Positions 2,547-30,164 of a stretch of DNA of 32,000 bases are shown here, piece by piece. How positions within the stretch are numbered: position 1 is the first letter of the stretch; every line of letters begins with the position of its first letter. The stretch covers positions 1,410,001 through 1,442,000 of the forward strand of contig NC_014972.1 in assembly GCF_000186885.1 (NCBI RefSeq), given 5' to 3'. The translations under genes and the position numbers were made by a program. The notes under the pieces were generated by a model that was not told the origin of the DNA, searched no databases, and saw only the letters and a list, made by a program, of their open reading frames with translations. Origin of the DNA: Desulfobulbus propionicus DSM 2032 (GTDB taxonomy: Bacteria; Desulfobacterota; Desulfobulbia; Desulfobulbales; Desulfobulbaceae).

Positions 2547-3018
2547 GATGGATGAGCGGGGAAGGATCTATATTGAAAAACCGATAGAATCAGTCGCTCC
2601 GAAAACGCGCAGAGAGAATGCGGCTTCGGAAAGACAAAGAAAGAGCTGTCGGTTCAATGGGGGAATTGGATAAAGGGGAAACGAATCGATAGATCCGTTT
2701 TGCAGGGGTGCGTGCGCAGTTCTCACGAGTCAGAGAAAGACGTTCGCCTCTGCGATTAAACGTCTCCGGTCGAGGAAAGGCAGCGCCGTGTGCTACTGAA
2801 GTTCAAGAACACAAAAACCGTGTCCAGCTAAGCCCTAAAAAGGGGTATCTCATTGGAAATGAGTCAGAATAATGGGTTTATTAATAAGTGCCTGGTGAGA
2901 AAAATCAAGATTAAAATGAGTTCGTCAGCTTTTGCCTGAGCATGAACGGGCGAACTCATTTGAAATATGCATGACCAAGGCCATAGTCGCCTCGGTTGAT
3001 CAAGCCCGCGCTGCTTAC

Positions 3019-4203
3019 CTATTTCTCGACAACCACTGCTATTCCCATGCCCCCGCCGATGCACAGTGTGGCCAGACCGCTTTTTGCTCCCCGTTTTTCC
3101 ATTTCATGGAGCAAGGACACCAGAATGCGAGCACCAGAGGCACCTATTGGGTGGCCGAGAGCTATTGCGCCCCCGTTGACATTGACCTTACTCATGTCAA
3201 AACCCAGATCTTTTGCGACAGCAACACTTTGCGAGGCAAATGCCTCATTTGCCTCAATCAGATCTATCTCGGTAAGTGTCTTTCCGGCCTTTGCCAATGC
3301 TTTTGGAGAAGCCGCTGCCGGGCCGATGCCCATGATTTCCGGCTTTACTCCTGCGGAGGCATAGCCCGTCAACTTTGCCATTGGCTTGATCCCCAATTCT
3401 TTTGCCTTATCGGCCGCCATGACGATGATGACCGCAGCACCATCGTTGATGCCTGAAGCATTGGCCGCTGTCACCATGCCATCGGGTTTGAATGCGGGCC
3501 TCAGTTTGTTGACTTTCTCCAGAGTGGAGTCAGGGGTGTAATGTTCATCAGTGTCAAACACGAGGGGAGCGCCTTTTCGTCTCGGAATGAGCACCGGAAC
3601 GATTTCATCCTTGAAACGTCCACTGGTAATAGCCGCTTCAGCCTTTTTCTGTGATTCGACTGCGAAGCGATCAAGTTCCTCCCTGGATAGATTCCAGTTC
3701 TCGCATATGTTCTCAGCCGTTATCCCCATGTGACAATTGCTCATCGCGCAGTGCAGGCCATCATGGACCATCATGTCGATGATACCATTCGTCGGCGCGT
3801 TCATTCTGTAACCGAAACGTGCCTGCGGCAGAGCATAAGCCGTGGCGCTCATGTTTTCCATGCCGCCGGCCACAATGATATCGGCGTCACCACACTGAAT
3901 TGCCTGGGCGGCCATCACGATGGATTTGAGACCGCTACCGCAAACCTTGTTTATAGTTACGGCGGGAACATCTTGGGGAATGCCTGCTTTGAGCATGGCC
4001 TGACGGGCCGGATTCTGCCCCAGCGCCCCTGTGAGCACACATCCCAAGATTACCTCATCGACCATTTCCGGCTTAATGCCGGACCTGTTCAGGGCGTCTT
4101 TGATGACAAGAGCTCCCAGTTCCACTGCTGGGACGTCTTTTATGGAACCACCAAATTTACCGACAGCAGTTCGACACGCACCGACTAGGACGACTTCACG
4201 CAT
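3019..4203 (-). CDS. acetyl-CoA C-acetyltransferase (thiolase II)
   Basis: The 394-aa protein starts [20 protein letters not shown]. It carries the active-site context [11 protein letters not shown] and the C-terminal motifs [17 protein letters not shown] and CIGGGMG. An AAGGAG RBS lies 7 nt upstream of the ATG. Confidence 0.95.
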
Positions 4204-4287
4204 TGTTCGTTCTCCTTAAGTTGGATCAAGCTTTTTATCGGTCTAAAACTCACCCCGACAGTATAAATCAGACCCGAAAATTCACGG

Positions 4288-5586
4288 TTAAAGACACTTG
4301 AGCCAGCCGATACCCCACATGCAATGCCCGCAAGGAACATGGCTGCCATAACAATCATTGGCACCAAGCAGGCTGGTGTTGACCAAATCGACGCACGGTC
4401 CTGCTGAACAACTCCAACAGGGCGCATAGTTATTCAATTTTACCTCTGCCCGAAAAGACCTATATGCGGGCTGTTGCCAGATCATCTCAAGTGGTTGCTC
4501 TTCGAGAGTGCCAAATACCAACTCCTTGACATGGATCGGCTCCTGGTTCACCCTGCTGGGGCAGGTGTGCCATAGAAAGTGACAGGGCATAACCTCCCCG
4601 TTTTTATTGATAAAAACAGCCTCTTCTTCAATGAACGGGCAGGAGCGCTGTCCGTCGGTGTGTGCATAAAGCGGTGGCAGGAAAAGCTCAATGCCACGGT
4701 CGGTCGCCAACTCTCGGACCCTATGGAATTGCTTCTCCAACTCCCGCTGGTCACTGTCCCCCCGTGCCGCCACCAGGTTGGGAAAATGGAAGGTAATGGC
4801 CTTCTCGTTCGCTTCTTTTTGCATGGCCGCACCAAGTCGCAGAACGATGCTATCGGACAAACTCTTGGAAAACCTGAGCTGCGCGGAAGGAAGGTCAGTC
4901 AGATCTACCCCTTGGGCAACGGCTTCAGCATTCCATTTTGCAAAGAGTTGCGTCGCCTCGTAGCTATTCGGATTGAAGAGAGTCTGCCCGGCCATTGTGC
5001 CATCGTAGGAAAAAAGATGGCTGGCGATAATGTAATCGATGCCGTGCATGTGCGCCCATTCGACAAGAGCCGGTAACTGATGGAGCGTATCTTTTTGCAG
5101 CACTACTTCGACACCTATTCGAATCGCTCGATTTGCCGCCTTTGCTGCCTCCGAGAGATTCGCGATCGCCTTCTCCACCGAAGATCGCTGGTGCCCCTCT
5201 CGACCAAGGGTGCCGGTCTGTTGCTCGTTCAGATTGTCAAGAGACAGACATACGGTGTCAATTCCGGCTTGAATGAGTTGCAGGGCTCGTTTCTTATGCA
5301 ACAACAGTCCGTTGCTTTGGAAGCCAATACGTCCATCAGGAGGCATGACGGCTCTCGCGAGAACGATTATCTCGTCCAGATCGGGATGCAGCAAAGGCTC
5401 ACCGATACCGTTGAGGACCAAAAACCGGGTATGGACCAGGGAAGGCACCAGTTTTTTAAAGAGCTCAAGCGGCATGTCTCCTTCCTCGATGCAACTTCCC
5501 TCTGCAAACTTAAGGCACATGGGGCACCGCAGATTACAATGCGTCGTCAGCTCAACGTAAACTTTTTCCGGATACTGAATGGACAT
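4288..5586 (-). CDS. radical SAM protein with a C-terminal SPASM/twitch-like Cys-rich domain
   Basis: The N-terminus has the CX3CX2C cluster motif (LTTHCNLRCPMC), followed by NGIGEPLL (GGE-like SAM motif). The C-terminus has CPFIEEEAVFINKNGEVMPC, then CWSCSAGPC, and ends ..CYGSHVPCGHCMWGIGWLKCL. No obvious SD is present. Confidence 0.85.
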   Translation of the reverse strand: MSIQYPEKVYVELTTHCNLRCPMCLKFAEGSCIEEGDMPLELFKKLVPSLVHTRFLVLNGIGEPLLHPDLDEIIVLARAVMPPDGRIGFQSNGLLLHKKRALQLIQAGIDTVCLSLDNLNEQQTGTLGREGHQRSSVEKAIANLSEAAKAANRAIRIGVEVVLQKDTLHQLPALVEWAHMHGIDYIIASHLFSYDGTMAGQTLFNPNSYEATQLFAKWNAEAVAQGVDLTDLPSAQLRFSKSLSDSIVLRLGAAMQKEANEKAITFHFPNLVAARGDSDQRELEKQFHRVRELATDRGIELFLPPLYAHTDGQRSCPFIEEEAVFINKNGEVMPCHFLWHTCPSRVNQEPIHVKELVFGTLEEQPLEMIWQQPAYRSFRAEVKLNNYAPCWSCSAGPCVDLVNTSLLGANDCYGSHVPCGHCMWGIGWLKCL

Positions 5587-5674
5587 GCTTTAAAACTACT
5601 TAGAAACATTAAAAAAACAGAATACGAAGCGTTCCGGAAATCAAAGGAAGAGAATGCCGTTAGTAGGCTCTTCT

Positions 5675-6511
5675 TCAGTTGCAGGGTTTCACCGCCTCGA
5701 TCGTGGCAGAAACGATAAAATCGGCCACAGAGGCCTCTGGTGTCCAGGTGCGGATGAAGGCCTTGCTTTCTTCCTTGGGGGATATTTGAATATCCACAAA
5801 CCCGGCTGTTTGCAGCATGCCTTCCAACTCTGAAATCAGAGAAGCGCCGGCAATACACCCGGCATGGAGGGCCATGTCACGCCTGATATGCTCAGGCAAT
5901 TCAGCGGTGGCGACAATGTCGGAGATGGCCAACCGGCCGCCCGGTTTGAGAACGCGGAAGGCATCAGTGAAGACCTGGGGTTTGTCCGGCGATAAATTGA
6001 TGACACAGTTGGAGAGGATAACGTCTACGGCATTATCGGCTACCGGCAGATGTTCTATTTCTCCCAGTCGAAACTCAACATTGCGATAACCGTTGTTTGC
6101 CGCATTGGCCCGGGCCTTGGAAAGCATTTCCGGTGTCATATCCACCCCGATGACATGACCGCTCTCTCCCACCTGACGAGCCGCCAGAAAACAATCAAAT
6201 CCAGCGCCGCTGCCAAGATCAAGGACAACTTCACCCGTTATTAATGCAGCAATGGCTTGAGGATTGCCGCACCCCAGGCCTAAATTGGCTCCTTCGGGTA
6301 CCGCGCCTATTTCATCGGAGGTGTATCCTAACTGTTGCGACACCTCAGGGGCTGGGCCGCTGCAGCAACTCGTGCTGCCACAACAACCTGCTTCAGCCGC
6401 TCGGCTATAGAGATCTCGCACAGCTTGCCGGACACCATCTTTTTCCAACATACTCATAATACCCTCGCTTGATTGCTGCGATTGTTCCGCAACGTCATAA
6501 AATTCAGCCAA
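5675..6511 (-). CDS. arsM: arsenite S-adenosylmethionine methyltransferase
   Basis: The SAM-binding motif is VLDLGSGAGFDCF. Cysteine contexts match the conserved ArsM cysteines: GCCGSTSCC (N-terminal), LGCGNP, SNCVINL and HAGCIAGA. The start is a TTG overlapping the upstream gene's stop by 8 nt; an internal ATG (M19 or M21) is an alternative. Confidence 0.85.
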   Translation of the reverse strand: MAEFYDVAEQSQQSSEGIMSMLEKDGVRQAVRDLYSRAAEAGCCGSTSCCSGPAPEVSQQLGYTSDEIGAVPEGANLGLGCGNPQAIAALITGEVVLDLGSGAGFDCFLAARQVGESGHVIGVDMTPEMLSKARANAANNGYRNVEFRLGEIEHLPVADNAVDVILSNCVINLSPDKPQVFTDAFRVLKPGGRLAISDIVATAELPEHIRRDMALHAGCIAGASLISELEGMLQTAGFVDIQISPKEESKAFIRTWTPEASVADFIVSATIEAVKPCN

Positions 6512-6734
6512 TCCAAGATTCTATTTCACTCTGCTTCGGTATCCGGCCAACACACTTGACCTGACCGTCAATGACAACTGCCGGAGTTGAGAAAACACCG
6601 AGTTGGGCGATTTCCTGAAAGTCCTTCACCTTGACGATGGTAGCTTGAACGCCTTTTAATGCGACAGCCGCTTCGACGGCCTTCTGGGTTTTTTCACAGG
6701 AAGCGCAGCCTGGTCCACATACTTTGATTTCCAT
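6504..6734 (-). CDS. small thioredoxin-fold protein (redox-active disulfide protein 2 type)
   Basis: MEIKVCGPGCASCEKT.. contains CxxC, and TPAVVIDG lies in the C-terminal half. The ATG at 6734 is preceded by GAGGA. The 76-aa size is typical of this family. Confidence 0.8.
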   Translation of the reverse strand: MEIKVCGPGCASCEKTQKAVEAAVALKGVQATIVKVKDFQEIAQLGVFSTPAVVIDGQVKCVGRIPKQSEIESWIG

Positions 6735-6750
6735 TTTTTCCTCTTTCAAA

Positions 6751-7857
6751 TCAGATGATTGTATTAAAGAGATAGCCGGTGAAAACTATCCCGCATCCCA
6801 CTACAAAAACAAAAACTGCGATCAATTTTGGTTTCAGGACCTTGCGAAGAATAATCATCTCCGGCAAAGAGAGCGCAATCACACTCATCATGAAAGCCAG
6901 CACTGTCCCCAAAGCGGCTCCTTTGCCGAGCAGTGCCTCGACTACCGGTACAATGCCGGCAGCATTGGAGTACATGGGAATGCCGACGACCACCGCCGCC
7001 GGAACAGACCACCACGCATCTTTGCCCATAACCTGCGCCATGAAATCTTCCGGCACATACCCATGAATAAAGGCGCCAACCGCGATGCCGGCGACCACAT
7101 AGATCCAGACTTTGCCGACGATATCACGAACAGCGTCCTTGCCCTGGTCGATCCGATCCGGCCAGGAGAGTTTTCTTTCAAAGACAAGGGCTTCACCGGC
7201 CCGCATTTCCTGGACCCAATCCTCAATCCAAGTCTCGAGTTTCAGGCGACCGATAACCCAACCTGCAACCATGGCAATCAAGAGTCCGGTGCTGAGATAG
7301 AGGGCCGCGACCTTCCAACCAAGCAAGCCATATAGAAGCGCCAAGGCAATTTCGTTGACCATCGGAGCCGCAATGAGAAACGAGAAAGTGACCCCCAAGG
7401 GAATACCTGCCTGAACGAAACCGAGAAATAAGGGAACGGCGGAACAGGAGCAGAAGGGGGTGACAATCCCGAGCAGGGCAGCCATGACGTTCCCTGCGGT
7501 TTCACGCTTGCCGGCCAGATATTGCCGGGTGCGTTCCTGAGTGAAAAAGGAACGGATAACGCCAATGACAAACACGATTAAAGTCAGCAACATCATGACT
7601 TTTGGCGTGTCATAGAGGAAAAACTGGATGGCGCCACCAAGTTGGCTGCCCTTTTTTATCTCAAATAAAGAATAGGTTACATAGGATGAAAAGGGTTCCA
7701 GATTGTTATAGATGACAAGCCAGATCCCAAGGCTGAACAGGCTGAGGAGGATGATTTTGCCCCATTGAACATTTTTTTCGATGACAGCTTCGCCAGCAGT
7801 TGCTTGTTTGGCGCAACTACAGCCGGGAGATTGCAGTGGTTCCATTTTATGCCTCAT
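6751..7857 (-). CDS. PF03773/DUF318-type permease (ArsP-like; organoarsenical efflux candidate)
   Basis: This is a polytopic membrane protein with the family-typical TPFCSCSAVP motif and a two-half architecture. Its ATG overlaps the arsR stop (ATGA at 7854-7857). Confidence 0.8.
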   Translation of the reverse strand: MRHKMEPLQSPGCSCAKQATAGEAVIEKNVQWGKIILLSLFSLGIWLVIYNNLEPFSSYVTYSLFEIKKGSQLGGAIQFFLYDTPKVMMLLTLIVFVIGVIRSFFTQERTRQYLAGKRETAGNVMAALLGIVTPFCSCSAVPLFLGFVQAGIPLGVTFSFLIAAPMVNEIALALLYGLLGWKVAALYLSTGLLIAMVAGWVIGRLKLETWIEDWVQEMRAGEALVFERKLSWPDRIDQGKDAVRDIVGKVWIYVVAGIAVGAFIHGYVPEDFMAQVMGKDAWWSVPAAVVVGIPMYSNAAGIVPVVEALLGKGAALGTVLAFMMSVIALSLPEMIILRKVLKPKLIAVFVFVVGCGIVFTGYLFNTII

Positions 7858-8201
7858 TTTTTAAGATATGCCCGTTGACACGTTGTGTCCGGCAAAGCTT
7901 GTTTCATCCGTAGCAGTTCAGGGTCTTCATTCAGCCAATCCTGCAAGACAATCAACATTCTCCCCGAGTACACGGACTCTTTCCCGTCAGCCTGGCTGTA
8001 TATCATCCAGGTTCCCTGCCGTTCTTTTTCCACCAATCCAGCATCCTCAAGAATTTTCATGTGGCTGGAGACGGTCGGTTGGGCGATGCCTAACGCTTCC
8101 TGAATCTCACAGACACAGAGAGCGTTTTTCTCAAGAAGTTTCAATATCCTCACCCGATTCGGATCCGAAAGAGCTTTCATGACACGCAAGAATGTTTTCA
8201 T
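7854..8201 (-). CDS. arsR: ArsR/SmtB-family metalloregulator with a CVC site
   Basis: ALSDPNRVRILKLL is followed by LCVCEI, the helix-3 As(III)-type Cys pair as in the ELCVCDL motif. The wHTH region reads QPTVSSHMKILEDAGLV. A GAGG RBS is present. Confidence 0.85.
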   Translation of the reverse strand: MKTFLRVMKALSDPNRVRILKLLEKNALCVCEIQEALGIAQPTVSSHMKILEDAGLVEKERQGTWMIYSQADGKESVYSGRMLIVLQDWLNEDPELLRMKQALPDTTCQRAYLKK

Positions 8202-8222
8202 TTATCCTCACTATTAAATATG

Positions 8223-8271
8223 TATATATTTATATTTTATAATATATAAAACAGGGTAAAGTGGTTGTCAA
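8223..8271 (-). promoter_or_regulatory. candidate sigma70 promoter with an AT-rich inverted repeat (possible ArsR operator)
   Basis: On the minus strand: TTGACA (8271-8266), a 17-nt spacer, then TATATA (8248-8243). The inverted repeat TATATATT (8223-8230) / AATATATA (8241-8248) overlaps the -10. The AT-rich sequence is low complexity, which weakens the call. Confidence 0.35.
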
Positions 8272-8558: not shown

Positions 8559-8574
8559 TGGCATGATTGTTGAT
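8559..8574 (+). promoter_or_regulatory. sigma54-like -24/-12 element
   Basis: TGGCAT-gattg-TTGAT has correct GG-to-TTG spacing relative to TGGCAC-N5-TTGCW, but the -12 C is replaced by A. It lies about 74 nt upstream of the ATG at 8648. Confidence 0.3.
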
Positions 8575-8647
8575 ATTCAACGAACAAGCTAGTCGATGTG
8601 ATTCAGTAGGTGAACCATCAAAATGTAACAACCAACGAGGTGCAACC

Positions 8648-8971
8648 ATGAAAAAGATGAAGAAATTCGTGTTGGCAGTAGGATGCTTGCTGATGGCCAG
8701 TGGCGCCGCATGGGCAGTAGATTATTCAAAACTTTCTACAGATGAGTTGAGTCGTATGAGGGGAACCATGTACAACGCCAGCCAAACGGAATGGAATGCC
8801 TTTCATACCGAATGGTGGAAACGACTCGACAAGATGACTCCGGAACAACGGCAACAGTACTTTGGTCCGGGGCGTGGTGGCATGGCCATGGGACGCGGCA
8901 TGGGACGTGGCATGGGACGTGGTCCGGGATGGTGGGGAGCTGGTGCTGCAAACCAGGGTACCGGCAACTGA
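8648..8971 (+). CDS. small secreted protein with a Gly/Met/Arg repeat tail (possibly Spy/CpxP/ZraP-like)
   Basis: The signal peptide is MKKMKKFVLAVGCLLMASGAAWA. An LTxxQ-like segment (KMTPEQRQQY) is present, and the C-terminus reads GRGGMAMGRGMGRGMGRGPGWWG. The functional class is only a resemblance. Confidence 0.65.
   Translation: MKKMKKFVLAVGCLLMASGAAWAVDYSKLSTDELSRMRGTMYNASQTEWNAFHTEWWKRLDKMTPEQRQQYFGPGRGGMAMGRGMGRGMGRGPGWWGAGAANQGTGN
8888..8923 (+). repeat. 12-bp tandem repeat x3 encoding (MGRG)3
   Basis: The three units are atgggacgcggc, atgggacgtggc and atgggacgtggt, lying inside the CDS above. Confidence 0.9.
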
Positions 8972-9228: not shown

Positions 9229-10209
9229 TCATCGGGAAGGGTTGATACCTGGTAAGGATGGGGGTGAATCGCAGGATGTATCAACCGAGCAGCCTTCTTG
9301 ATTTTCTGCTGGAGGGAGCAAAGGATTATTGATGGAGGTTGCACTTGAATGAATGTTGGGCAAGTTTTCTGATTTTCGACCATGGGTGGCGAGGCTGTCG
9401 AGGAAGGCAATACATGCGCTCTCTCCTTTGACAATTGAGAAGCCATTCGTTGTCCGGATTAAGAGAACAGGTATCTCTTCTATTCCCAGTGTGGTGAGCA
9501 GAGCCTTGTTTGCCCCAGCAGAGTATCGCGGATTCAAAATGACTTCAGGAACGGCAAGTGACGATATTGTGTCTATGGGATTAAAATGCATCGAGATAAC
9601 AGCATTATTCCGCATTGTCTTCAGGACTCGTTGACAGTGGCTGCATGTTGAAGAAAAGAAAAGATAGACTGTAGCAGTTGGTGATGCAATGATTCTGCTG
9701 GCAAAAACTCCATCGCGGATGGCGTTGGGATTCTTGTGGCTGCTGTTATATTCAAGGCTGGAAAAAGCAAGGAGAACTACGCCGAACACAAAAAAGCTCG
9801 TCAACAGTTGCTTGATTCCGGCTAGAACATTAAGCAGTGTAATAAATCCTAGAACGATCAGGCAATATGTGCAGAATGTTCCGGCTATTATCTGCTGAAA
9901 ACCAACAAGAACCCCTTCAGCGGCAAGCCCTGCGAGGAGGAGCAAACGGACCAATTGTGCTCGGTTTGCCCCCTCATCGTTAATTCGGAACAGGCACCAG
10001 AACACTGCTTGAAAAAAGAATAGCCCGGTAAAATTGAACCACAGTGGTGGAACTTTGGTTAATTGGTCAACCACTTGACAACCTTGGCTCAAACACAATC
10101 CTTCCTGGCCAAGAAGCAGAATAATAATCTGGGCGGCAACCATTAGGCTGGCGAGTAAAGCTGCCCATTTAACTCTTTGCATGCGCAGCCATTTATTTTT
10201 TCTATACAT
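9229..10209 (-). CDS. VKOR-like membrane thiol oxidoreductase fused to a thioredoxin-fold domain
   Basis: About five TM helices are present, with a loop Cys pair (GLCLSQGC) and an intramembrane CXXC (FCTYCL) as in the VKOR family. A C-terminal soluble domain carries FFSSTCSHCQ (CxxC). The start is uncertain (ATG 10209 or 10182). The 440-aa track ORF extends antisense into arsR and is not credible. Confidence 0.65.
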   Translation of the reverse strand: MYRKNKWLRMQRVKWAALLASLMVAAQIIILLLGQEGLCLSQGCQVVDQLTKVPPLWFNFTGLFFFQAVFWCLFRINDEGANRAQLVRLLLLAGLAAEGVLVGFQQIIAGTFCTYCLIVLGFITLLNVLAGIKQLLTSFFVFGVVLLAFSSLEYNSSHKNPNAIRDGVFASRIIASPTATVYLFFSSTCSHCQRVLKTMRNNAVISMHFNPIDTISSLAVPEVILNPRYSAGANKALLTTLGIEEIPVLLIRTTNGFSIVKGESACIAFLDSLATHGRKSENLPNIHSSATSINNPLLPPAENQEGCSVDTSCDSPPSLPGINPSR

Positions 10210-10285
10210 ACCAGAGCATTTCAAGCAATATATAATAATTTCAGTCGAATGCAACTTTTGCCAAATCGTTGAACGAGATTTCCGC

Positions 10286-10314
10286 TTGACAATAATTGTT
10301 GGTTGATTTACCAA
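10286..10314 (+). promoter_or_regulatory. candidate promoter with a palindrome upstream of the second arsR
   Basis: TTGACA (10286-10291) is followed by a 17-nt spacer and TACCAA (10309-10314, a weak -10). The 11-bp palindrome ACAATAATTGT (10289-10299) overlaps the -35 and spacer. The predicted TSS falls at or next to the ATG at 10322, and no SD is present. Confidence 0.3.
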
Positions 10315-10321
10315 ATGACAA

Positions 10322-10657
10322 ATGGAAAAGCAACGACCGACTGAAAAAGAGATGGCCCTTGTTGAAGCGAAAGCCAACGTCCTGAAAGCATTGGGCCACC
10401 CAACAAGACTGTGGATGGCCGAACAGCTTGCCGATGGGGAAAAATGTGTTTGCGAATTGGCTGAGTTCATCGACGCCGATTTTTCGACCATTTCAAAACA
10501 TCTGTCTGTCCTTAAACAGGCGGGGGTGGTCGACGATGAGAAGCGGGGCAAGCAGGTTTATTATCGGCTTAAAGTGCCGTGCATTCTCAAGTATATGTCG
10601 TGCGTCGAGGCTGTCATCAAAGCAAGCGTGAAAGAACAGGTTGAGATGCTAGCATAA
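10322..10657 (+). CDS. arsR: ArsR/SmtB-family metalloregulator with a CVC site
   Basis: LKALGHPTRLWMAEQL is followed by EKCVCEL, then FSTISKHLSVLKQAGVV (wHTH). Confidence 0.85.
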   Translation: MEKQRPTEKEMALVEAKANVLKALGHPTRLWMAEQLADGEKCVCELAEFIDADFSTISKHLSVLKQAGVVDDEKRGKQVYYRLKVPCILKYMSCVEAVIKASVKEQVEMLA

Positions 10658-10717
10658 TCTGCAAGTATCTTTTTGCTTTTTATATGGTCACTTGGCCAAA
10701 CAAGCAATGGTGTAATT

Positions 10718-12019
10718 ATGGAATGGAAGGTTGAGTGGAAATATCTCCTTTTGATCATTGGTGTTTTTCTCGCCTGTTATTATCTGCCCGTGGGGACGGA
10801 GCGGTTTGACAATGCCATTCTAGAGGCCTTCCATCTCGTCAAATGGTATGCGCAAGAACATGTTCTGCTCTGCCTGGTCCCGGCCTTCTTTATCGCCGGG
10901 GCGATTGGAGTTTTCGTCAGTCAGACCTCGGTCATGAAATACCTCGGCCCGACCGCCAACAAGGTGATCGCCTATGGCGTGGCCGCTGTTTCCGGCACCA
11001 TCCTTGCGGTGTGTTCCTGTACTATCCTTCCCTTGTTCAGCGGTATTTACAGGATGGGGGCTGGACTTGGACCAGCCTGCGCTTTTCTCTATTCCGGTCC
11101 GGCTATCAATGTGTTGGCCATCATTCTCACAGCACGAATTCTTGGCACTGAAATAGGTGTTGCCAGAGGTGTAGGAGCCGTCCTGTTTAGCGTGATTATT
11201 GGTGCGCTCATGGCATTTATTTTCCGTAGTGAAGAACAGGAAAAAGCAACAGTCCAAATGGCCTTACCCGAAGAGGAAGTCAAACGTTCTCTCTTGCAGA
11301 ATGCTCTCTATTTTGCCTCGATGGTAGGGGTTCTGGTTTTTGCTAACTGGGGTAAGCCGCAGGAACCTGTGGGTGTCTGGGCAACCATCTATGCCATGAA
11401 ATGGATGATCACCTCAGGATTTGCCGCAGCTTTGGGCTTGATCCTGATTGTTTGGTTTAAAATGAGGGCTTGGAAAGTCGGTCTGATCGCCGCTCCTGTG
11501 GTGGCCTTTGCAATGTTCTTCCCAGAGCAGCCTGTGGTGGCCTTTGCAGCAGGTTTTGTTGGATTATCCATTTTCACCAGCACAGATAAGGACGAATTAG
11601 GGGATTGGTTCTCCTCTTCATGGGGATTTGCTAAGCAAATTTTACCATTATTGCTCTTTGGCGTGCTGATAGCCGGCGCTTTGCTGGGTCGTGTTGGTCA
11701 CGAAGGCCTTATACCTTCAGAATGGGTTGCCAAAGCCGTGGGCGGCAACTCTCTTCTAGCCAATTTTTTTGCCTCCTTCGCCGGAGCTTTCATGTATTTC
11801 GCCACTTTGACTGAAGTTCCGATCGTCCAAGGGCTCATCGGCAGCGGCATGGGCAAGGGACCTGCGTTGGCACTACTTCTCGCTGGCCCTGCTTTGAGCC
11901 TACCCAATATGCTGGTGATCAATAGTGTCCTTGGAGTGAAAAAAACAGTCACCTTTGTCAGTTTGGTGATTGTGATGGCCACTTTTTGCGGCATGTTGTT
12001 TGGCTCGTTTTTTAACTAA
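10718..12019 (+). CDS. PF03773/DUF318-type permease, long variant
   Basis: This is a polytopic membrane protein whose motif GTILAVCSCTILP is equivalent to the TPFCSCS motif. It has extra central TM segments. The start is uncertain (ATG 10718 or TTG 10673). Confidence 0.8.
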   Translation: MEWKVEWKYLLLIIGVFLACYYLPVGTERFDNAILEAFHLVKWYAQEHVLLCLVPAFFIAGAIGVFVSQTSVMKYLGPTANKVIAYGVAAVSGTILAVCSCTILPLFSGIYRMGAGLGPACAFLYSGPAINVLAIILTARILGTEIGVARGVGAVLFSVIIGALMAFIFRSEEQEKATVQMALPEEEVKRSLLQNALYFASMVGVLVFANWGKPQEPVGVWATIYAMKWMITSGFAAALGLILIVWFKMRAWKVGLIAAPVVAFAMFFPEQPVVAFAAGFVGLSIFTSTDKDELGDWFSSSWGFAKQILPLLLFGVLIAGALLGRVGHEGLIPSEWVAKAVGGNSLLANFFASFAGAFMYFATLTEVPIVQGLIGSGMGKGPALALLLAGPALSLPNMLVINSVLGVKKTVTFVSLVIVMATFCGMLFGSFFN

Positions 12020-12038
12020 TTCAACGGAGAAAAAGACA

Positions 12039-12272
12039 ATGAAAGTTCAAATTTTAGGCCCGGGATGCGCCAAATGTACCAAGCTTATGGATACTGCGGC
12101 AGCAGCCGCTCAAGAACTGGGCATTGCCTGTGAATTTGAGAAGATTTCGGACGTGAATCAAATCATGGGATTCGGCGTTATGATGACCCCAGGTCTTGTG
12201 GTCGACGGGGAAGTGAAAAGCGTCGGCAAGGTGCCATCGCTGGAAGAAATGAAAAAACTATTAAAGAAGTGA
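12039..12272 (+). CDS. small thioredoxin-fold protein (redox-active disulfide protein 2 type)
   Basis: MKVQILGPGCAKCTKL (CxxC) and MTPGLVVDG are present. GGAG lies about 9 nt upstream of the ATG at 12039. It is a paralogue of 6504-6734. Confidence 0.8.
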   Translation: MKVQILGPGCAKCTKLMDTAAAAAQELGIACEFEKISDVNQIMGFGVMMTPGLVVDGEVKSVGKVPSLEEMKKLLKK

Positions 12273-12285
12273 AGAGGAGAAAGCA

Positions 12286-12675
12286 ATGAGTGCAATGCAA
12301 ACCGGATGCGGTTGTTCCTGCGGTGGTGGGGATGCAGGACCAAAAGTCATTTTTTCCTGTTCAGGGTGTGCCGATGTTGGTGAACTCGCTGATCAGGCTG
12401 CACGTAAATTGACCAGGGATGGCGCGGGCAAAATGGCTTGCCTGGCAGGGATTAGTGGCAAGGTCAGTGGCATCGTAAAATCTGCCGAGGCTGCGCAGTC
12501 AATTCTGGCCATAGATGGCTGCCCACTCGACTGCACCCGCAAGACCTTGGAGATTGCCGGGTTCTCCAGAGTTAACCATCTTCGCTTGAGTGATCTTGGC
12601 TTTGAGAAGGGGGATACGGAGGTGTCCCGTGCGTCTATTGCCTCGGTCATCAGCAAAGCAATGATCTACCTTTAA
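12286..12675 (+). CDS. DGC-domain Cys-rich (putative metal-binding) protein
   Basis: The N-terminus reads GCGCSCGGG, followed by FSCSGC, CLAGI and the eponymous IDGCPLDC motif. Confidence 0.75.
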   Translation: MSAMQTGCGCSCGGGDAGPKVIFSCSGCADVGELADQAARKLTRDGAGKMACLAGISGKVSGIVKSAEAAQSILAIDGCPLDCTRKTLEIAGFSRVNHLRLSDLGFEKGDTEVSRASIASVISKAMIYL

Positions 12676-12690
12676 GCGTAGGAGTCGACG

Positions 12691-13086
12691 GTGCGAACGT
12701 ATTCTTTCCCGGGTGCCTTGATGGCTCTCGCCCTATTTGTATCTATTGGACTCTTTGCGCTCTCCCAAACGCCAGTCATGGCAGAGCCTTTGCCAGAAGT
12801 ACCAGCCCCCGGCCTGGTGACCATAGTCGACATTGGGGCTAAAAAATGCATCCCCTGCAAGATGATGGCCCCCATCCTCGAAGAGTTGACCAAAGAATAT
12901 CAAGGACGTGCAGCGGTCATCTTCATAGATGTCTGGGAAAAGCCTGAAGCGGGACCTAAATTTGGTATACGGGCTATCCCTACACAGATCTTTTATGACG
13001 CGCAAGGCAAAGAAGTAACCCGTCATGAGGGCTTTTTGGATAAGCAATCCATTGTCAGCATGTTCACCAAATTAGGGGTCAAGTAA
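12691..13086 (+). CDS. exported thioredoxin-family protein (CIPC active site)
   Basis: The start is GTG with an AGGAG RBS. The signal peptide ends ..LSQTPVMA. The Trx active-site context is GAKKCIPCKMMAP, with the cis-Pro context IRAIPTQIF. Confidence 0.85.
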   Translation: MRTYSFPGALMALALFVSIGLFALSQTPVMAEPLPEVPAPGLVTIVDIGAKKCIPCKMMAPILEELTKEYQGRAAVIFIDVWEKPEAGPKFGIRAIPTQIFYDAQGKEVTRHEGFLDKQSIVSMFTKLGVK

Positions 13087-13088
13087 CC

Positions 13089-13796
13089 ATGGATCAGGTC
13101 TTTCTCACCATCAATGCCTGGATGACTCAGGGCCTCCTCTTGGGGGCCTTGGGCTGTTTTCTCTGGGGCATGGTCAGCGTTTTGTTCAGTCCCTGTCACT
13201 TGGCCTCCATCCCCCTTATTGTCAGTTATGTGGCGGGACAGAATCAAATCGTGGCAGGAAAGAAGGCTGTTCTTTATGCCGTGGCATTTACCATCGGTTT
13301 ATTTATCACCATCGCCACCATTGGCGTTGTTTGCACCTTGCTTGGGCGCATGCTTGGCGATGTCGGACCCTATATGAGCATCGCTGTGGGTGCAATTCTT
13401 GTCTGGGTTTCCCTGGATATCCTCGGCGTGGCCAAATGCTCCATGTCCAGTGGACTTATGGCGAAGATTAAGGTGAAAGGGTTGTTTGGCGCGCTCGTTC
13501 TTGGTTTAGCCTACGGTATTCTTTCCGGATCGTGCACCTTCGGCTTTATTGCCCCCATTCTTGCTATCATTACCGTGCAACAGAAAATCCTCACCGGAGT
13601 CGTTTTCATCCTTCTCTTTGGGATTGGCCATTGCATTCCCATTGCCGTTGCCGGCAGCTCCACCGCCATGGTCAAACGATTTCTGGAAAACAGCGCCTGG
13701 CAACAAGGAAGCGGCCTTTTCCGTAAACTTGCCGGTGTTTGTATTGGCGCCTTGGGGATTTATTTCATTAGCCAACCGCTCATGGCAATAGTGTAG
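13089..13796 (+). CDS. ccdA: CcdA/DsbD-type transmembrane thiol-disulfide electron transporter
   Basis: About six TM helices carry the two conserved Cys contexts FSPCHLASIPL and GSCTFGFIAPIL. The start lies 2 nt after the thioredoxin stop. Confidence 0.85.
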   Translation: MDQVFLTINAWMTQGLLLGALGCFLWGMVSVLFSPCHLASIPLIVSYVAGQNQIVAGKKAVLYAVAFTIGLFITIATIGVVCTLLGRMLGDVGPYMSIAVGAILVWVSLDILGVAKCSMSSGLMAKIKVKGLFGALVLGLAYGILSGSCTFGFIAPILAIITVQQKILTGVVFILLFGIGHCIPIAVAGSSTAMVKRFLENSAWQQGSGLFRKLAGVCIGALGIYFISQPLMAIV

Positions 13797-13831
13797 TTCG
13801 ACCAGGATGGTTCACGGGGAAGGAGACTTCC

Positions 13832-14719
13832 ATGTTCAACCGGTTCATCGTCGCAACGGATTTATCCCCGGCATCCTTTGCAATGGTGCAGCACATTGGG
13901 AACCTGAAGCTCTGTGGTGCTCGTCATTGCCTGCTTTTGCAGTGCCTCTCGCCTGAAGAATATGATTCGACAGTCTTCGCTTATGACACCAAGGTGTTGA
14001 GCAATATCCTCCGACAACAGAAGGAAATTCTGAAAAATCAGGGATATTCAGTTGAAACGCGTGTTGTATCGGGCAACACGAAACATCAGCTTAATCAGAT
14101 AGCCCTGCGAGAAAATTACGCCCTCTTTGTGGTGGGGACACGGGAATATTCCCTTATCGGTGAGAGCTTTTTGGGGGGTGGTGCCAACGATGTAATGCAC
14201 CATGCTTGTAAACCCGTTTTACGCCTGCGGGGCGACTTGGGAACAGGAGAGAAAAATTATGCCACCAACCATTTCAGATTCAATGAGCATGTGCTTTACC
14301 CCACCGACTTCTCCGACAATTCAACTCGTGCGTTCAGGTACGTCAAAGAGCTGGTGGCCTGTGGTGCACAAAGGGTAACGCTTTTTCATGTTCAGAAACC
14401 ACAACATGGCCACAGTCAAAAGGTTCGGCCAGGTGATGCAGGTGATAGTCCCTTGCAGTATTTGAAAGATTTGCAGGAGGCTCTGCGAGGTATTGGCAAA
14501 GCCAAAATTCGAATTGAAATGCGTGAGGGCTCACCAACGCCGGAAATTCTTCGCTGGATGCTGGAGCACGAAGTGCAATTGGTCGTCATGGCATCCCATT
14601 GCCGAAACATGGTTGAAGAATTCTTTGTTGGCAGCGTGAGCCACGATATTGCCCGTCATGCAGAGGCCAGTGTGCTTTTTATCCCTTCGGTACACCCCAA
14701 TTCGTGGTCGGTTCAATAG
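13832..14719 (+). CDS. tandem universal stress protein (two Usp domains)
   Basis: There are two halves, each beginning with a Usp-like strand (FIVATDLSP; VLYPTDFSD). The second half ends GSVSHDIARHAEASVLFIP. Confidence 0.8.
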   Translation: MFNRFIVATDLSPASFAMVQHIGNLKLCGARHCLLLQCLSPEEYDSTVFAYDTKVLSNILRQQKEILKNQGYSVETRVVSGNTKHQLNQIALRENYALFVVGTREYSLIGESFLGGGANDVMHHACKPVLRLRGDLGTGEKNYATNHFRFNEHVLYPTDFSDNSTRAFRYVKELVACGAQRVTLFHVQKPQHGHSQKVRPGDAGDSPLQYLKDLQEALRGIGKAKIRIEMREGSPTPEILRWMLEHEVQLVVMASHCRNMVEEFFVGSVSHDIARHAEASVLFIPSVHPNSWSVQ

Positions 14720-14857
14720 CAATCATGTCGGCACTTTTCAAAAGAACAATTTGGCAGGCGGTTGCCACGGTGTTTTGGCGGCCTTGCCAGGTGAACGCAT
14801 AAAAAACATATCTGTGTGTTCGTAATCCGCGATTCGCAATTAGATTGGAGGTTGGTT

Positions 14858-16159
14858 TTGAACGATACGCTGTTGCAATGGGCTGGATGTTGTTTGGCGC
14901 TCATGTTGCTGGCCGGTGGCTGCGCCAACAAGGAGCAAGGAGAACAGTCGGTCTCTGTCACCGACAAGGTGACTAGCAGCTCATCCACAACCACAAACTA
15001 CAAGGGAAAGGTCGCGAGTTTCTCCAAACGAGCCCAAGCCATATTTTTAACAGTCGGGTCGGGCGCTAACGCACAAACAGTCCGGGTAAAATTCGATGAC
15101 GCAACCAAAGGCGTCGATGAGATCGCAGAAGGCCATTTTGTCACCATCGACTACGAGTTGAGGGATGGCGAGGCCTATGCCACCAGTGTCCAACAAAATA
15201 AAGCGACTCTGCCTGAGGGTGTGACCAATATAGACACCGATGAGCTGTTGCGACTCATCCGGGAACGGGCCTCGTTTGTCCTGGTGGACCCTCGGCCGAT
15301 GGATCGTTACAAGCAATCACATCTCCCCGGCGCGGTCTCCATTTCGATCGATTTATCCGAACAGCAGCAAACCGAGCTACTGCCACAGGATAAAAATACG
15401 CTCTTGGTGTTCTATGATGGCGGACACGGTCGCGGCACGGCCATAACCAGTGCTGCGGCAGCCAAAAATAAAGGATTTGCGAACGTCCGGGTCTACACAA
15501 CGGGCCGGGCGGCCTGGATGGACGCTTCTTTGCCCACCTACTCCACCAGGGAGTATATCCAGAGCGGCAATGTCCTCGTGATCGATACACGCCCTAAAAA
15601 AACGAGTGCGGTCGGTCGAATCAAGGGAGCCTACACCTTGTCTGTCGATACAATCAATGCAACCCTGCGTGATTTGCCCCGTGACGCGCCCATCGTGCTG
15701 TATGGCGACGAGGCAACAAAAGCACTGGAGTTGCTGACCGATGAGGGTTTCACCGCTGTAACGCTCCTGGATGGTGGATATGCGAGTTGGGTTGAAGCAG
15801 GGAGCAAGATTGAGAAAGGGCCGATCTCTACCGCCAAGATCAAATGGGAACGGAAGCTGGAAACGGGCGAGGTGTCGCTGGACGATTTCCGCAAGGCCGT
15901 CTCTGGCAAAGAAAAAGATATTCTTCTCATTGATGTACGTGGCCGTGATGAAATCGGCAAGCAGCCACTCATTACTAACGCCATCAATATCCCCCTGGAT
16001 GAACTCCCCGCGCAAGAAGCCACGTTGCCCAAGGACAAGATGATGTATCTTTACTGCTCCACCGGAGCGCGTGCCAAAATGGCGTACAACGAACTGGCAA
16101 ACGCCGGCTTCAAAGCCAAATTCCTGCGCATGAATATCAAAGATCTTTCTGCCAGATAA
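14858..16159 (+). CDS. lipoprotein with three rhodanese-like domains (only the last has an active-site Cys)
   Basis: The track ORF starts at 14816. A TTG at 14858, 6 nt after GGAGG, gives a signal peptide with lipobox LAGGC. The domain loop contexts are FYDGGHGRG (no Cys), LYGDEATKA (no Cys) and LYCSTGARA (catalytic-type). Confidence 0.75.
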   Translation: MNDTLLQWAGCCLALMLLAGGCANKEQGEQSVSVTDKVTSSSSTTTNYKGKVASFSKRAQAIFLTVGSGANAQTVRVKFDDATKGVDEIAEGHFVTIDYELRDGEAYATSVQQNKATLPEGVTNIDTDELLRLIRERASFVLVDPRPMDRYKQSHLPGAVSISIDLSEQQQTELLPQDKNTLLVFYDGGHGRGTAITSAAAAKNKGFANVRVYTTGRAAWMDASLPTYSTREYIQSGNVLVIDTRPKKTSAVGRIKGAYTLSVDTINATLRDLPRDAPIVLYGDEATKALELLTDEGFTAVTLLDGGYASWVEAGSKIEKGPISTAKIKWERKLETGEVSLDDFRKAVSGKEKDILLIDVRGRDEIGKQPLITNAINIPLDELPAQEATLPKDKMMYLYCSTGARAKMAYNELANAGFKAKFLRMNIKDLSAR

Positions 16160-16170
16160 GGAGATTTATT

Positions 16171-17172
16171 TTGGCACACGATCATTGTCACAACCATAAT
16201 CACCATCACGCCCCCGATAATTTCAATCGGGCTTTTGCCATCGGTATAGTGCTCAATTTGTTGTTTGTCGGAGTGGAGGCTGGGTACGGCCTGTTTGCCG
16301 ATTCATTGGCCCTGGTGGCCGATGCGGGACACAACTTGAGCGATGTTATGACCCTGCTCATCGCTTGGGCGGCCATGGCAGTTGCCAAGCGGTCAGCAAC
16401 GGCAAAACATACCTATGGGTTCAAAAAAGGAACTATTCTTGTCTCTCTTGGCAGCGCACTGTTTCTCTATGCGGCCATTGGAGTGATCATTTGGGAGGCA
16501 TTCGGACGGCTGCTGTCACCGGTTCCCGTTCACGGCATGACAATCACCGTGGTTGCTGCCATCGGCGTGGTCATCAATACCGTGACGGCCTTGTTATTCA
16601 TGGCGGGGCGCAAGAAGGATCTCAACCTCAAGGCTGCATTTCTCCACATGGCTGCGGATGCCATTGTCTCTGCCGGTGTGGTGGTGTCGGGATTGGTCAT
16701 CACGGCTACCGGTTGGAATATGCTCGATCCAGTATTATCCATCGTTATCGCGTTATTCATCCTCTTTGCCGGCTGGGGTTTGTTGAAAGACTCTCTCCAT
16801 CTCACCATGGCCGGGGTTCCTCCCCACATCAATGCGGAAAAAGTTCTGGATTATTTGACGGCCATTCCGGAAGTGCGGTGCGTCCACGACCTGCACATCT
16901 GGGCAACCAGTACCACGGAGAACGTCTTGACAGCGCATCTGATCATGCAATCTGGCGGGAGCGATGCATTCCTCCATGAAACAGCGGAATATCTGCACCA
17001 TCATTTCGATATTCACCATACAACCCTACAAATCGAACGTAGTGATATAGGGGGTGTTTGCCATACGGACCAGGGAAACGGGCAAGGGAACTGCTGGCCT
17101 GGGCGACTGGTCAATGTGGAGCAAAGAATGCAAGAAGAACACAGGCAAAGCTGCTCATGCACTGCATCGTGA
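16171..17172 (+). CDS. cation diffusion facilitator (CzcD/ZitB-like) metal efflux protein
   Basis: The start is TTG after AAGGAG. The N-terminus is His-rich (HDHCHNHNHHH). Six TM helices carry ALVADAGHNLSD and FLHMAADA motifs. The tail is Cys/His-rich (..CHTDQGNGQGNC..SCSC..). Confidence 0.9.
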   Translation: MAHDHCHNHNHHHAPDNFNRAFAIGIVLNLLFVGVEAGYGLFADSLALVADAGHNLSDVMTLLIAWAAMAVAKRSATAKHTYGFKKGTILVSLGSALFLYAAIGVIIWEAFGRLLSPVPVHGMTITVVAAIGVVINTVTALLFMAGRKKDLNLKAAFLHMAADAIVSAGVVVSGLVITATGWNMLDPVLSIVIALFILFAGWGLLKDSLHLTMAGVPPHINAEKVLDYLTAIPEVRCVHDLHIWATSTTENVLTAHLIMQSGGSDAFLHETAEYLHHHFDIHHTTLQIERSDIGGVCHTDQGNGQGNCWPGRLVNVEQRMQEEHRQSCSCTAS

Positions 17173-17214
17173 TAACGATGATTTTATAAAATCAAAACTA
17201 TTGCCAAGGAGAAT

Positions 17215-17679
17215 ATGATGAAGCGTTTCAGATTAATTGCGATGTTACTTTCTGTACTTTTAGTGAATGCTCCTCTATTTGCACAAGAGGAGAAAAACAT
17301 TTCATTTGATGACTATCTCAAATCGTTTGATTATAAAGAACGAAAAAATATGAAAATTGAAATCCCTGAAATGCTGGAACTCTACAAACAGGGATCTGCC
17401 CAAATTATCGATATTCGCTTTCCTGAAGAATATCAGGCATACAGTTTTAGTTTTATCAAGAGCATTCCGTTGAACGAACTTCCTGCGCGGCTCGCCGAAC
17501 TTGATAAAAACAAAATTATCGTCACCATTTGTCCTCATTACGACCGGGCAGAAATAGCACGAACTTACCTGACATTGAAAGGATATCGTTCAAAATATTT
17601 AGTCGATGGCGCGGTTGGGCTGGCCGAATATCTCAGAGGTGATAAGGCACGAGATTTTATCAATGCCATAAAAAAATAA
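17215..17679 (+). CDS. exported single-domain rhodanese-like protein
   Basis: The signal peptide is MMKRFRLIAMLLSVLLVNAPLFA. The rhodanese fold has the loop VTICPHYDRA. Confidence 0.8.
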   Translation: MMKRFRLIAMLLSVLLVNAPLFAQEEKNISFDDYLKSFDYKERKNMKIEIPEMLELYKQGSAQIIDIRFPEEYQAYSFSFIKSIPLNELPARLAELDKNKIIVTICPHYDRAEIARTYLTLKGYRSKYLVDGAVGLAEYLRGDKARDFINAIKK

Positions 17680-17733
17680 GAGTGCGATCCTTTTGAACTG
17701 CATGCGGCTCACAGATACACACCTGCCTGTGCA

Positions 17734-18162
17734 ATGATCGGCATGATGAAAGCCATTGTCCAGCGATTACACTTTTGCGTAGGACTTGTCATGAGCATTT
17801 CCAGCACCGTTCATGCTCTCGAAGATGTCAAAATTATCGACAGAGTACAAACGGAACACCTTTTGCAACATGGCGCTGTCTTTATTGACAATCGCCCTGA
17901 ATATAAATTTTCCCTTGGCCATATCAAAGGAGCCATAAACCTTCCTTTTTTCATAGCCAATGACCCATCAAACAAGATGACCAAGGAGAATCTTTCCCTG
18001 GCCATTGGCAACAACGAGCTTGTCGTCTTTTACTGTACCGGCATGGAGCGCGCCTACCATGCCCTGAAACAGGCGCGACAATGGGGGATCACTGCTGAAA
18101 TGTATTGGTACAAGAATGGATTTGAAGAGTGGAAGATGTTTTACCCGCCGCACCTTGACTGA
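17734..18162 (+). CDS. exported single-domain rhodanese-like sulfurtransferase
   Basis: The N-terminal hydrophobic leader ends ..SSTVHA. The active-site loop is FYCTGMERA (a CxGxxR-type loop). Confidence 0.8.
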   Translation: MIGMMKAIVQRLHFCVGLVMSISSTVHALEDVKIIDRVQTEHLLQHGAVFIDNRPEYKFSLGHIKGAINLPFFIANDPSNKMTKENLSLAIGNNELVVFYCTGMERAYHALKQARQWGITAEMYWYKNGFEEWKMFYPPHLD

Positions 18163-18221: not shown

Positions 18222-20320
<2,099 letters not shown>

Positions 20321-20324
<4 letters not shown>

Positions 20325-20635: not shown

Positions 20636-20637
20636 GG

Positions 20638-21644: not shown

Positions 21645-21653
21645 GTACGTCGT

Positions 21654-21932: not shown

Positions 21933-21935
21933 GCG

Positions 21936-24225: not shown

Positions 24226-24229
24226 GGCT

Positions 24230-26350: not shown

Positions 26351-26373
26351 TATTGAAACAAGGGAGGGATCAT

Positions 26374-26706: not shown

Positions 26707-26813
26707 GAAGTGAGCCAAAACAATCAACGATTAAGCGGTAATTCCTTGCGGGCTTTCCATGTAAAAATCTGCAGTTACATGCAAAAAAATTATCAACAGG
26801 ATGAGGTTCTGCC

Positions 26814-27227: not shown

Positions 27228-27254
27228 TCACAGTACGAGCGGACTGGAGAATGT

Positions 27255-30161: not shown

Positions 30162-30164
30162 GGT

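Follow-up and report, generated by a model that had tools for sequence, protein, structure and literature searches.

A CVC-ArsR-headed arsenic operon of Desulfobulbus propionicus may end in a TIGR04311 radical SAM accessory gene

Introduction

A 32,000 nt stretch of the genome of Desulfobulbus propionicus DSM 2032 (contig NC_014972.1, positions 1,410,001 to 1,442,000), referred to here as the window, contains at 4288–8201 an arsR gene followed on the same strand by genes for an ArsP-like permease, a thioredoxin-like (Trx-like) protein, the methyltransferase ArsM, and a radical S-adenosylmethionine (SAM) protein, which we call rSAM. The locus raises the question of what a radical SAM protein does behind a set of arsenic (ars) genes. 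The initial annotation suggested the production and export of an organoarsenical by the logic of arsQML, in which a permease, ArsM, and the radical SAM enzyme ArsL act together. From family matches and gene neighborhoods we favor another reading and give it an even chance: a CVC-ArsR-headed arsenic operon with ArsP, ArsE, and ArsM, which would end in a radical SAM accessory arsenic enzyme of the TIGR04311 family.

Methylarsenite reaches its greatest stability and toxicity where oxygen is absent, for example in paddy soils and sediments, and no enzymes are known for anaerobic arsenic demethylation there. To our knowledge, all characterised methylarsenite-detoxifying enzymes (ArsI, ArsH, and ArsV) need oxygen.

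Results

The ars genes preceding the radical SAM gene

Six genes stand in a row on the minus strand:

7854–8201, minus strand: arsR, ArsR/SmtB repressor of 115 aa (HTH_5, 69 bits; NF033788, 96 bits)
6751–7857, minus strand: ArsP_1 permease (PF03773, 266 bits), 368 aa from ATG 7857, more likely 364 aa from ATG 7845
6504–6749, minus strand: Trx-like protein of the MTH895/ArsE type (PF13192, 95 bits; TIGR00412, 93 bits with a cutoff of 62)
5675–6511, minus strand: arsM (NF008823, 366.8 bits with a cutoff of 263)
4288–5586, minus strand: radical SAM/SPASM gene (rSAM), 432 aa (PF04055 and PF13186; TIGR04311)
3019–4203, minus strand: thiolase, acetyl-CoA C-acetyltransferase (TIGR01930)

The five co-directional genes from arsR to rSAM were located as initially annotated, each with a family match, and these matches also bore out that an ArsR-headed cassette pairs an arsenite methyltransferase with a permease of the ArsP family. 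The detoxification genes arsC-arsC-acr3 were confirmed to lie apart from this cassette, at 29.26–31.26 kb.

The ArsR protein of the window has an ArsR/SmtB winged helix-turn-helix with a CVC pair in the DNA-binding region (LCVCE motif with Cys29 and Cys31). We take this motif to be the mark of As(III) sensing of the R773 type. The permease, a member of PF03773, has a cysteine pair in the motif TPFCSCS at residues 133–139, which, by comparison with Campylobacter ArsP, is presumably a functional membrane pair. By its PF03773 membership the permease may be an exporter of methylarsenite; this family also holds transporters named for other substrates, and the SaoE and SO_0444 models both scored below cutoff for the window protein. 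The Trx-like protein shows the motif CGPGCASC. ArsM has cysteines at positions 43/44/49/50, 81, 169, and 219, and its closest solved relatives are the arsenite methyltransferases 5evj and 4fr0, with which the motifs GCGNP, SNCVINLS, and C(I/L)AGA could be aligned.

Taken by itself, arsR-arsP-arsE-arsM is an already known kind of module that makes and exports methylarsenite. For anaerobes, it has been described that arsM and arsP pair to produce methylarsenite and to remove it from the cell, and that both genes co-evolve (PMC11653729). The anaerobe Paraclostridium bifermentans EML likewise has an ArsR regulator, a SAM-dependent ArsM with conserved cysteines, and a PF03773 permease; in this strain, however, arsM lies with arsR1 and acr3, and arsP is found elsewhere (PMC11653729), whereas in the window all of them form a single compact operon that also has ArsE and is followed by rSAM.

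The TIGR04311 gene in arsenic operons of other bacteria

Our comparison covered the surroundings of rSAM homologues in 80 species-level loci from genomes and 80 loci from metagenomes (numbered with L below), in which the ars genes were mapped by tblastn; the probes were taken from the window as well as from these loci. The 128 loci with enough upstream sequence were considered informative, and a locus was counted as ars-linked when an ars structural gene was present within 600 nt upstream in the same direction. The homologues were concentrated in Desulfobulbus, Desulfobulbaceae, and other Desulfobacterota.

An ars structural gene was directly upstream of the TIGR04311 gene in 41 of the 128 informative loci, namely Acr3 in 18, ArsM in 12, ArsE in 6, ArsA in 4, and ArsC in 1. 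Among the 51 loci in which rSAM was at least 45% identical to the protein of the window, 31 were ars-linked, compared with 10 among the 77 loci of lower identity. ArsR (40), ArsP (24), and Acr3 (21) were the three commonest neighbor families over all 160 loci, with ArsM present in 12. The ELCVC motif was found in 40 of the 41 listed ArsR proteins adjoining rSAM, the exception being L103. A neighbor-joining tree placed the ars-linked members in at least five separate clades, and the TIGR04311 gene occurred in at least six ars architectures:

arsR-arsP-arsE-arsM-rSAM: L001, L013, L017, L081–L087, L096, L109 (rSAM 64%–85% identical to the window protein; L084 is a partial contig with arsM-rSAM visible)
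arsR-arsP-arsE-rSAM: L005, L006, L009 (D. rhabdoformis DSM 8777), L047 (Desulfovibrio sp. 7SRBS1), L063, L088
arsR-acr3-rSAM, followed by a 173-aa PF04060 iron-sulfur (Fe-S) protein: L014–L016, L018, L021, L022, L024, L031, L080, L092, L114, L121
arsR-arsC-arsP-arsE-...-acr3-rSAM: L066, L070, L076
arsR-x-arsA-rSAM: L033, L078, L098, L099
Trx-DsbD-rSAM: L007, L012
arsR-rSAM-FeS, a minimal module: L095
acr3-rSAM-FeS-arsC, with rSAM internal to the operon: L034

In Desulfobulbales, Desulfovibrionales, and related anaerobes, the TIGR04311 gene repeatedly takes the final or next-to-final position in predicted ars operons that otherwise differ. Its placement after diverse arsenic genes, in several clades, and together with ArsR of the CVC type makes it very unlikely that chance or simple vertical inheritance is behind this arrangement. 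The reading that we prefer is that arsenic operons of strict anaerobes carry the TIGR04311 gene as a true accessory gene.

In L018–L022, L031, L034, L078, L080, L092, and L095, a gene about 40–75 nt 3' of rSAM encodes a protein of about 173 aa. Its N-terminal half is uncharacterised, and at the C-terminus it has the putative Fe-S cluster domain PF04060 (AcsC/RnfB type). In L027, the PF04060 protein directly follows Acr3 and rSAM is 3.9 kb away. The PF04060 partner is absent from the window. In L021 and L022, another radical SAM gene, shorter than rSAM, is oriented divergently to ArsR, and its product is only a distant SPASM relative.

Gene order resembles arsQML, protein families differ

A radical SAM gene directly behind arsM could indicate a two-step pathway of ArsM and rSAM to an arsinothricin (AST)- or arsenosugar-like product, which the ArsP-like permease would secrete. 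The same neighborhood is known from arsQML and from arsM-arsS of Synechocystis sp. PCC 6803, and the permease and ArsR are part of the same operon in the window. Conservation of the arsM-rSAM adjacency in other genomes, on which the initial annotation had let its hypothesis depend, was found in at least 12 other contigs, all from the clade of the window sequence.

The proteins themselves argue against this pathway, since rSAM fails every ArsL feature tested (tail, motif position, SPASM domain and extra cysteines, and family model). ArsL is a protein of 428 aa with its CX3CX2C motif at Cys194/198/201, with only these three conserved core cysteines and no auxiliary cluster (PMC8552651), and its defining C-terminal RCCLKC motif binds As(III) (bioRxiv 10.1101/2024.02.01.577332). 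The rSAM protein of the window, in contrast, has its CX3CX2C motif at residues 17–24 instead of mid-protein at 194–201, a SPASM domain, and ten more invariant cysteines, and lacks RCCLKC, which is represented by the ArsL model NF040542, at any position. Neither the ArsL/RCCLKC model nor an arsenosugar radical SAM model was among the 25 best NCBIfam matches of rSAM, the weakest of which had 33 bits, so that an ArsL match could hardly exceed this value. NCBIfam holds an ArsS model.

The other two components differ as well. The arsM gene of the arsQML cluster of Burkholderia gladioli is of the AST subtype (NF040538, cutoff of 500), for which window arsM reached only 150.6 bits, and it also remained at 101.4 bits for the arsenosugar ArsM model NF038099 (cutoff of 400). 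The permease of arsQML is ArsQ of the GntP type (PMC8552651), whereas the window has ArsP_1.

For arsM-arsS of Synechocystis, the likeness is that the radical SAM gene adjoins arsM. The host is a cyanobacterium, whereas the TIGR04311 ars loci are from strict anaerobes, and rSAM with its SPASM domain and TIGR04311 as best NCBIfam match belongs to a radical SAM family other than ArsS. According to the passages that cite this work in PMC8552651 and bioRxiv 10.1101/2024.02.01.577332, ArsS applies a 5'-deoxyadenosyl radical to the arsenical; by analogy, such chemistry is possible for rSAM. We rejected an identity of rSAM with ArsL or ArsS because of its family score, the place of its CX3CX2C motif, its SPASM domain, and its lack of an RCCLKC tail.

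The distribution of the gene leads in the same direction. In 29 of the 41 ars-linked loci arsM is missing and rSAM is preceded by Acr3, ArsA, ArsC, or ArsE, versus the 12 loci with ArsM, which argues for a role of rSAM independent of the ArsM product and weakens the two-step model. We consider such a biosynthetic pathway clearly unlikely. What stood from the arsQML parallel is the resemblance in gene order, the cassette as such, and its conserved adjacency; the membership of rSAM, arsM, and the permease in the arsQML families, the identity with ArsL, and the dependence on ArsM did not. With a TIGR04311 protein without RCCLKC tail, a generic ArsM, and an ArsP_1 permease, the arsQML analogy should not be carried to this locus by annotation.

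Features of the radical SAM protein

The rSAM protein matched TIGR04311 (radical SAM/SPASM family putative metalloenzyme maturase) over its full length with 469.1 bits at a cutoff of 400, residues 5–432 being aligned to model positions 1–423. Ten homologues from differing contexts all scored as TIGR04311. The second-best NCBIfam model was TIGR04317 (tungsten cofactor oxidoreductase radical SAM maturase) with 211 bits, and similarity to MoaA was confined to the core. The SPASM domain PF13186 was matched with 48.5 bits.

Besides the N-terminal CX3CX2C motif, cysteines 113, 316, 335, 390, 393, 398, 412, 419, 422, and 431 were invariant among 156 aligned members. In a smaller alignment of 21 sequences, nine of these ten were invariant, with Cys431 as the exception. 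The C-terminus of rSAM ends with ...VPCGHCMWGIGWLKCL, and the tail cysteines 419, 422, and 431 are common to the whole TIGR04311 family.

A structure model built on 21 homologues had a predicted local distance difference test (pLDDT) value of 78 and a predicted template modelling (pTM) score of 0.79. Foldseek matched this model to generic SPASM/twitch enzymes with TM values of about 0.5 (BlsE, SuiB, SkfB, BtrN, DesII, PqqE, and anSME), of which BlsE, BtrN, and DesII act on small molecules. The PDB sequence search with rSAM gave radical SAM cores alone (BtrN, MoaA, and PqqE), with E values no better than 6.5e-10, and no informative relative. An N-terminal peptide recognition element (RRE) was not found in rSAM, and no minus-strand open reading frame (ORF) of 20 aa or more that could encode a precursor peptide was confined to either of the gaps flanking the gene.

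Junctions and transcription signals

The gaps between arsM and rSAM (88 nt, 5587–5674) and between rSAM and the thiolase gene (84 nt, 4204–4287) were exactly as initially annotated. An ATGA overlap of arsR and the permease gene and an 8-nt overlap of the Trx-like gene with arsM, which had been taken as signs of tight coupling, arise only with the longest-ORF starts. More likely starts, preceded by a Shine-Dalgarno (SD) sequence, are ATG 7845 for the permease, ATG 6734 for the Trx-like protein (GAGG), and ATG 6457 for ArsM (GAGGG). Gene calls made independently by a pipeline on contigs with the identical protein use the same starts, with products of 364, 76, and 260 aa. The spacings calculated from the revised starts (8, 16, 46, 88, and 84 nt) are still compact.

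The following signals were recognized around the genes:

8212–8271, minus strand: candidate arsR promoter/operator, with TTGACA at 8271–8266 and TATATA 17 nt further on, read from the sequence
5587–5674, minus strand: arsM-rSAM spacer of 88 nt with a weak hairpin and a U7 run and without an SD sequence
4204–4287, minus strand: rSAM-thiolase spacer of 84 nt with a strong, conserved AAGGAG SD sequence for the thiolase gene
2911–2964, minus strand: hairpin and U-rich tract about 55 nt past the thiolase stop codon, formed by an inverted repeat

The candidate promoter at 8212–8271 was not reported by the consensus promoter scan. Overlapping AT-rich palindromes (four inverted repeats) at 8212–8250 lie just 5' of the arsR ATG, and we infer that ArsR may bind there. 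The hairpin at 2911–2964 has an 11-bp lower stem (AAAUGAGUUCG/CGAACUCAUUU) followed by UAAUCUUGAUUUUU and is likely to mark the end of the minus-strand transcription unit.

The arsM-rSAM spacer could be understood as a border. In this case rSAM and the thiolase gene would form a housekeeping unit of their own that just happens to lie next to the ars operon, and the hairpin and U7 run would terminate the ars transcript. The T7 run and the missing SD sequence ahead of the rSAM ATG, both pointed out in the initial annotation, were confirmed by the sequence, and a T-rich tract is present at the same place in relatives. Furthermore, the thiolase, which is encoded by a highly conserved gene of primary metabolism, is 86%–97% identical among the relatives, and about two thirds of the TIGR04311 family members are not beside ars genes. 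The weak stem described for this spacer is indeed there; its stability, however, was not above that of shuffled sequences (z = +0.44), and the consensus fold of the spacer from nine relatives reached only -3.3 kcal/mol with one compensatory pair. Consensus scans revealed no terminator-like and no sigma-70-like or other promoter-like site in the 88-nt or the 84-nt gap. We rejected a terminator or internal promoter between arsM and rSAM based on these empty scans and on a fold no better than shuffled. In other architectures, rSAM starts about 25–50 nt after Acr3 or ArsA, as judged from the offsets of the tblastn matches. Immediate co-directional placement downstream of ars genes in 41 loci from several clades is far beyond chance, and an independent unit in the window would leave this family-wide pattern unexplained. 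Such a unit appears highly improbable to us, and co-transcription of arsM and rSAM in the window is plausible from the sequence.

The T-rich tract ahead of the SD-less rSAM start is common to most relatives of the arsM-containing clade and could serve SD-independent translation or attenuation. In seven loci (L013, L017, L082, L085, L087, L096, and L109) the spacer consists of GGCATATTGC, about 22 nt, GCAATATG, and a run of six to nine T, which is located 10–15 nt before the SD-less ATG of rSAM. The spacers of the window and of L081 differ from this type, and the T-rich tract of L081 is much weaker. In L001, the spacer is short and has no T-rich tract.

The thiolase gene directly follows rSAM in nine loci (+85 to +93 nt); its distance is +1487 nt in L087, and the contigs of L013 and L109 break off inside rSAM or shortly behind it. 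It follows rSAM only in the closest, arsM-containing clade, and was rejected as a functional partner for this reason. The thiolase gene is probably a clade-specific housekeeping neighbor outside the arsenic function.

Discussion

A possible role of the radical SAM protein in arsenic metabolism

If rSAM is an accessory arsenic enzyme, the operon could work as follows. As(III) would release ArsR from the AT-rich operator. ArsM would turn As(III) into methylarsenite, a compound that is both stable and toxic when oxygen is lacking. ArsP would export the methylarsenite, and ArsE would keep the relevant thiols reduced. The rSAM protein would be expressed with or alongside the operon as an oxygen-independent accessory arsenic enzyme. 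Its N-terminal [4Fe-4S] cluster would cleave SAM reductively, and the SAM-derived radical would act directly on a trivalent arsenical, either by breaking its C-As bond, which would make rSAM the anaerobic equivalent of ArsI, or by alkylating arsenic, similar to ArsS. The auxiliary clusters of the SPASM domain would relay electrons, which in many relatives may be supplied by the small PF04060 Fe-S protein encoded downstream.

Radical chemistry directly on the trivalent arsenical, be it C-As cleavage or an adenosyl-type alkylation, is a tentative part of this proposal, to which we give somewhat less than an even chance. It is suggested because none of the loci encodes a protein or peptide substrate along with rSAM, because a dedicated small Fe-S protein often follows rSAM, and because ArsS and ArsL, the radical SAM enzymes known from ars clusters, act on As(III) species. 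It is possible, and rather doubtful at present, that TIGR04311, often together with PF04060, represents a new O2-independent arsenic-transforming family, either an anaerobic C-As lyase/demethylase or a third type of arsenic-alkylating radical SAM enzyme.

The C-As lyase ArsI is an aerobic accessory gene product of ars operons that demethylates methylarsenite. Its niche resembles that of rSAM, as both are encoded by accessory genes within ars operons beside efflux pumps (for ArsI, in part after work on Nostoc arsM/arsI). ArsI is, however, an O2-dependent non-haem iron dioxygenase, unrelated to rSAM in sequence and fold, and we put forward lyase activity of rSAM as a hypothesis based on this analogy.

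Several observations weigh against rSAM as an arsenic enzyme. No ars gene is immediately upstream of the TIGR04311 member in 87 of the 128 informative loci. The 88-nt spacer with its U7 run and without SD sequence parts arsM from rSAM. The cysteine-rich C-terminal region was modelled poorly, with pLDDT values below 50 at residues 387–432. A C-As lyase beside arsM would make a futile cycle. No residue or cysteine separates the ars-linked from the other TIGR04311 members, all invariants being shared, and this argues for one chemistry, which does not necessarily involve arsenic. Finally, eight distant members (L060, L138, L144, L150, L153, and L156–L158) adjoin a gene for aldehyde:ferredoxin oxidoreductase (AOR; PF02730 and PF01314), which is located about 180 nt downstream of rSAM and is the only other recurrent functional neighbor of TIGR04311 genes. 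These AOR-adjacent proteins have the best TIGR04311 scores, about 610 bits, and the AOR adjacency is probably the source of the family name 'metalloenzyme maturase'.

The last two observations would fit a protein that does not touch arsenic at all, namely a factor for the maturation or repair of an Fe-S cofactor or of an enzyme with a metal cofactor, such as an AOR-type tungsten/molybdenum-pterin enzyme. Control by ArsR would then be understandable because arsenite poisons dithiol/dithiolene cofactors. The name of TIGR04311, the second rank of TIGR04317, and the similarity to MoaA in the core also speak for such a factor. The window rSAM is a full-length TIGR04311 protein that shares all invariant cysteines with the AOR-adjacent members; instead of standing beside AOR, it closes an ars operon, and no AOR or other metalloenzyme is encoded near rSAM in the window. 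The ars-linked loci encode no enzyme that would be a candidate target, and we know of none among the adjacent Ars proteins that needs maturation by a radical SAM enzyme. From a general cofactor factor one would not expect tight coupling, within operons of six architectures, to arsenic-specific transporters. Moreover, TIGR04311 and TIGR04317 are called maturases only by inference from annotation, and a literature search found no experimental paper on it. We regard a maturase or repair function as unlikely, though it is the main rival of the accessory arsenic enzyme that we favor.

A literature search found no paper in which TIGR04311, or a SPASM radical SAM protein of any kind, is connected with ars operons, and rSAM is probably a new arsenic-handling gene of these operons. 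The CVC-ArsR-linked rSAM gene, which closes operons of the Acr3, ArsA, ArsP, and ArsM type in sulfate reducers, is a clonable candidate for O2-independent arsenic chemistry. If rSAM instead protects arsenite-sensitive cofactors, it would add a new kind of function to arsenic tolerance. In both cases, the gene context provides a lead on a family that is annotated only as 'putative metalloenzyme maturase'.

Other features of the window

The whole window is an arsenic-rich island. Further ars genes in it are:

25174–26271, minus strand: third ArsP_1 permease
26353–29057, plus strand: arsR3-arsD-arsA
29263–31259, minus strand: arsC-arsC-acr3

A second ArsR-headed cluster is present on the plus strand at 10322–18162. 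It starts with arsR2 (CVC type), a gene for a 448-aa ArsP_1 permease, and an ArsE-like ORF at 12039–12263, and continues with genes for a DGC-domain protein, a thioredoxin, a DsbD-like membrane protein, a tandem Usp, a triple-rhodanese protein, and a CDF transporter, with two further rhodanese genes at its end. The Trx-DsbD end of such a cluster is directly followed by a TIGR04311 rSAM gene in the relatives L007 and L012.

Between the two arsR genes, a 134-aa ORF without Pfam match (8567–8971, plus strand) has a C-terminal (MGRG)n repeat and a signal-like stretch from an internal Met (MKKMKKFVLAVGCLLMASGAAWA). A long membrane-like ORF without Pfam match extends over 9229–10551 on the minus strand, and its listed TTG start overlaps arsR2. 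An inverted repeat at 2445–2553 with 52-nt arms, which are 92% complementary and 5 nt apart, lies between the thiolase gene and a convergent ORF of 333 aa (1393–2394, no Pfam or NCBIfam match). The 31-nt core of this repeat occurs at this site only within the window.

An atypical set of F-type ATPase genes (beta, a, b/delta, alpha, and gamma) is located between the arsenic clusters at 18541–25108 on the plus strand. A gene for an ATP-synthase beta-like protein also lies beside the arsR-acr3-rSAM operon in L014, L018, L065, and L080, which suggests that the ATPase island recurs next to ars genes.

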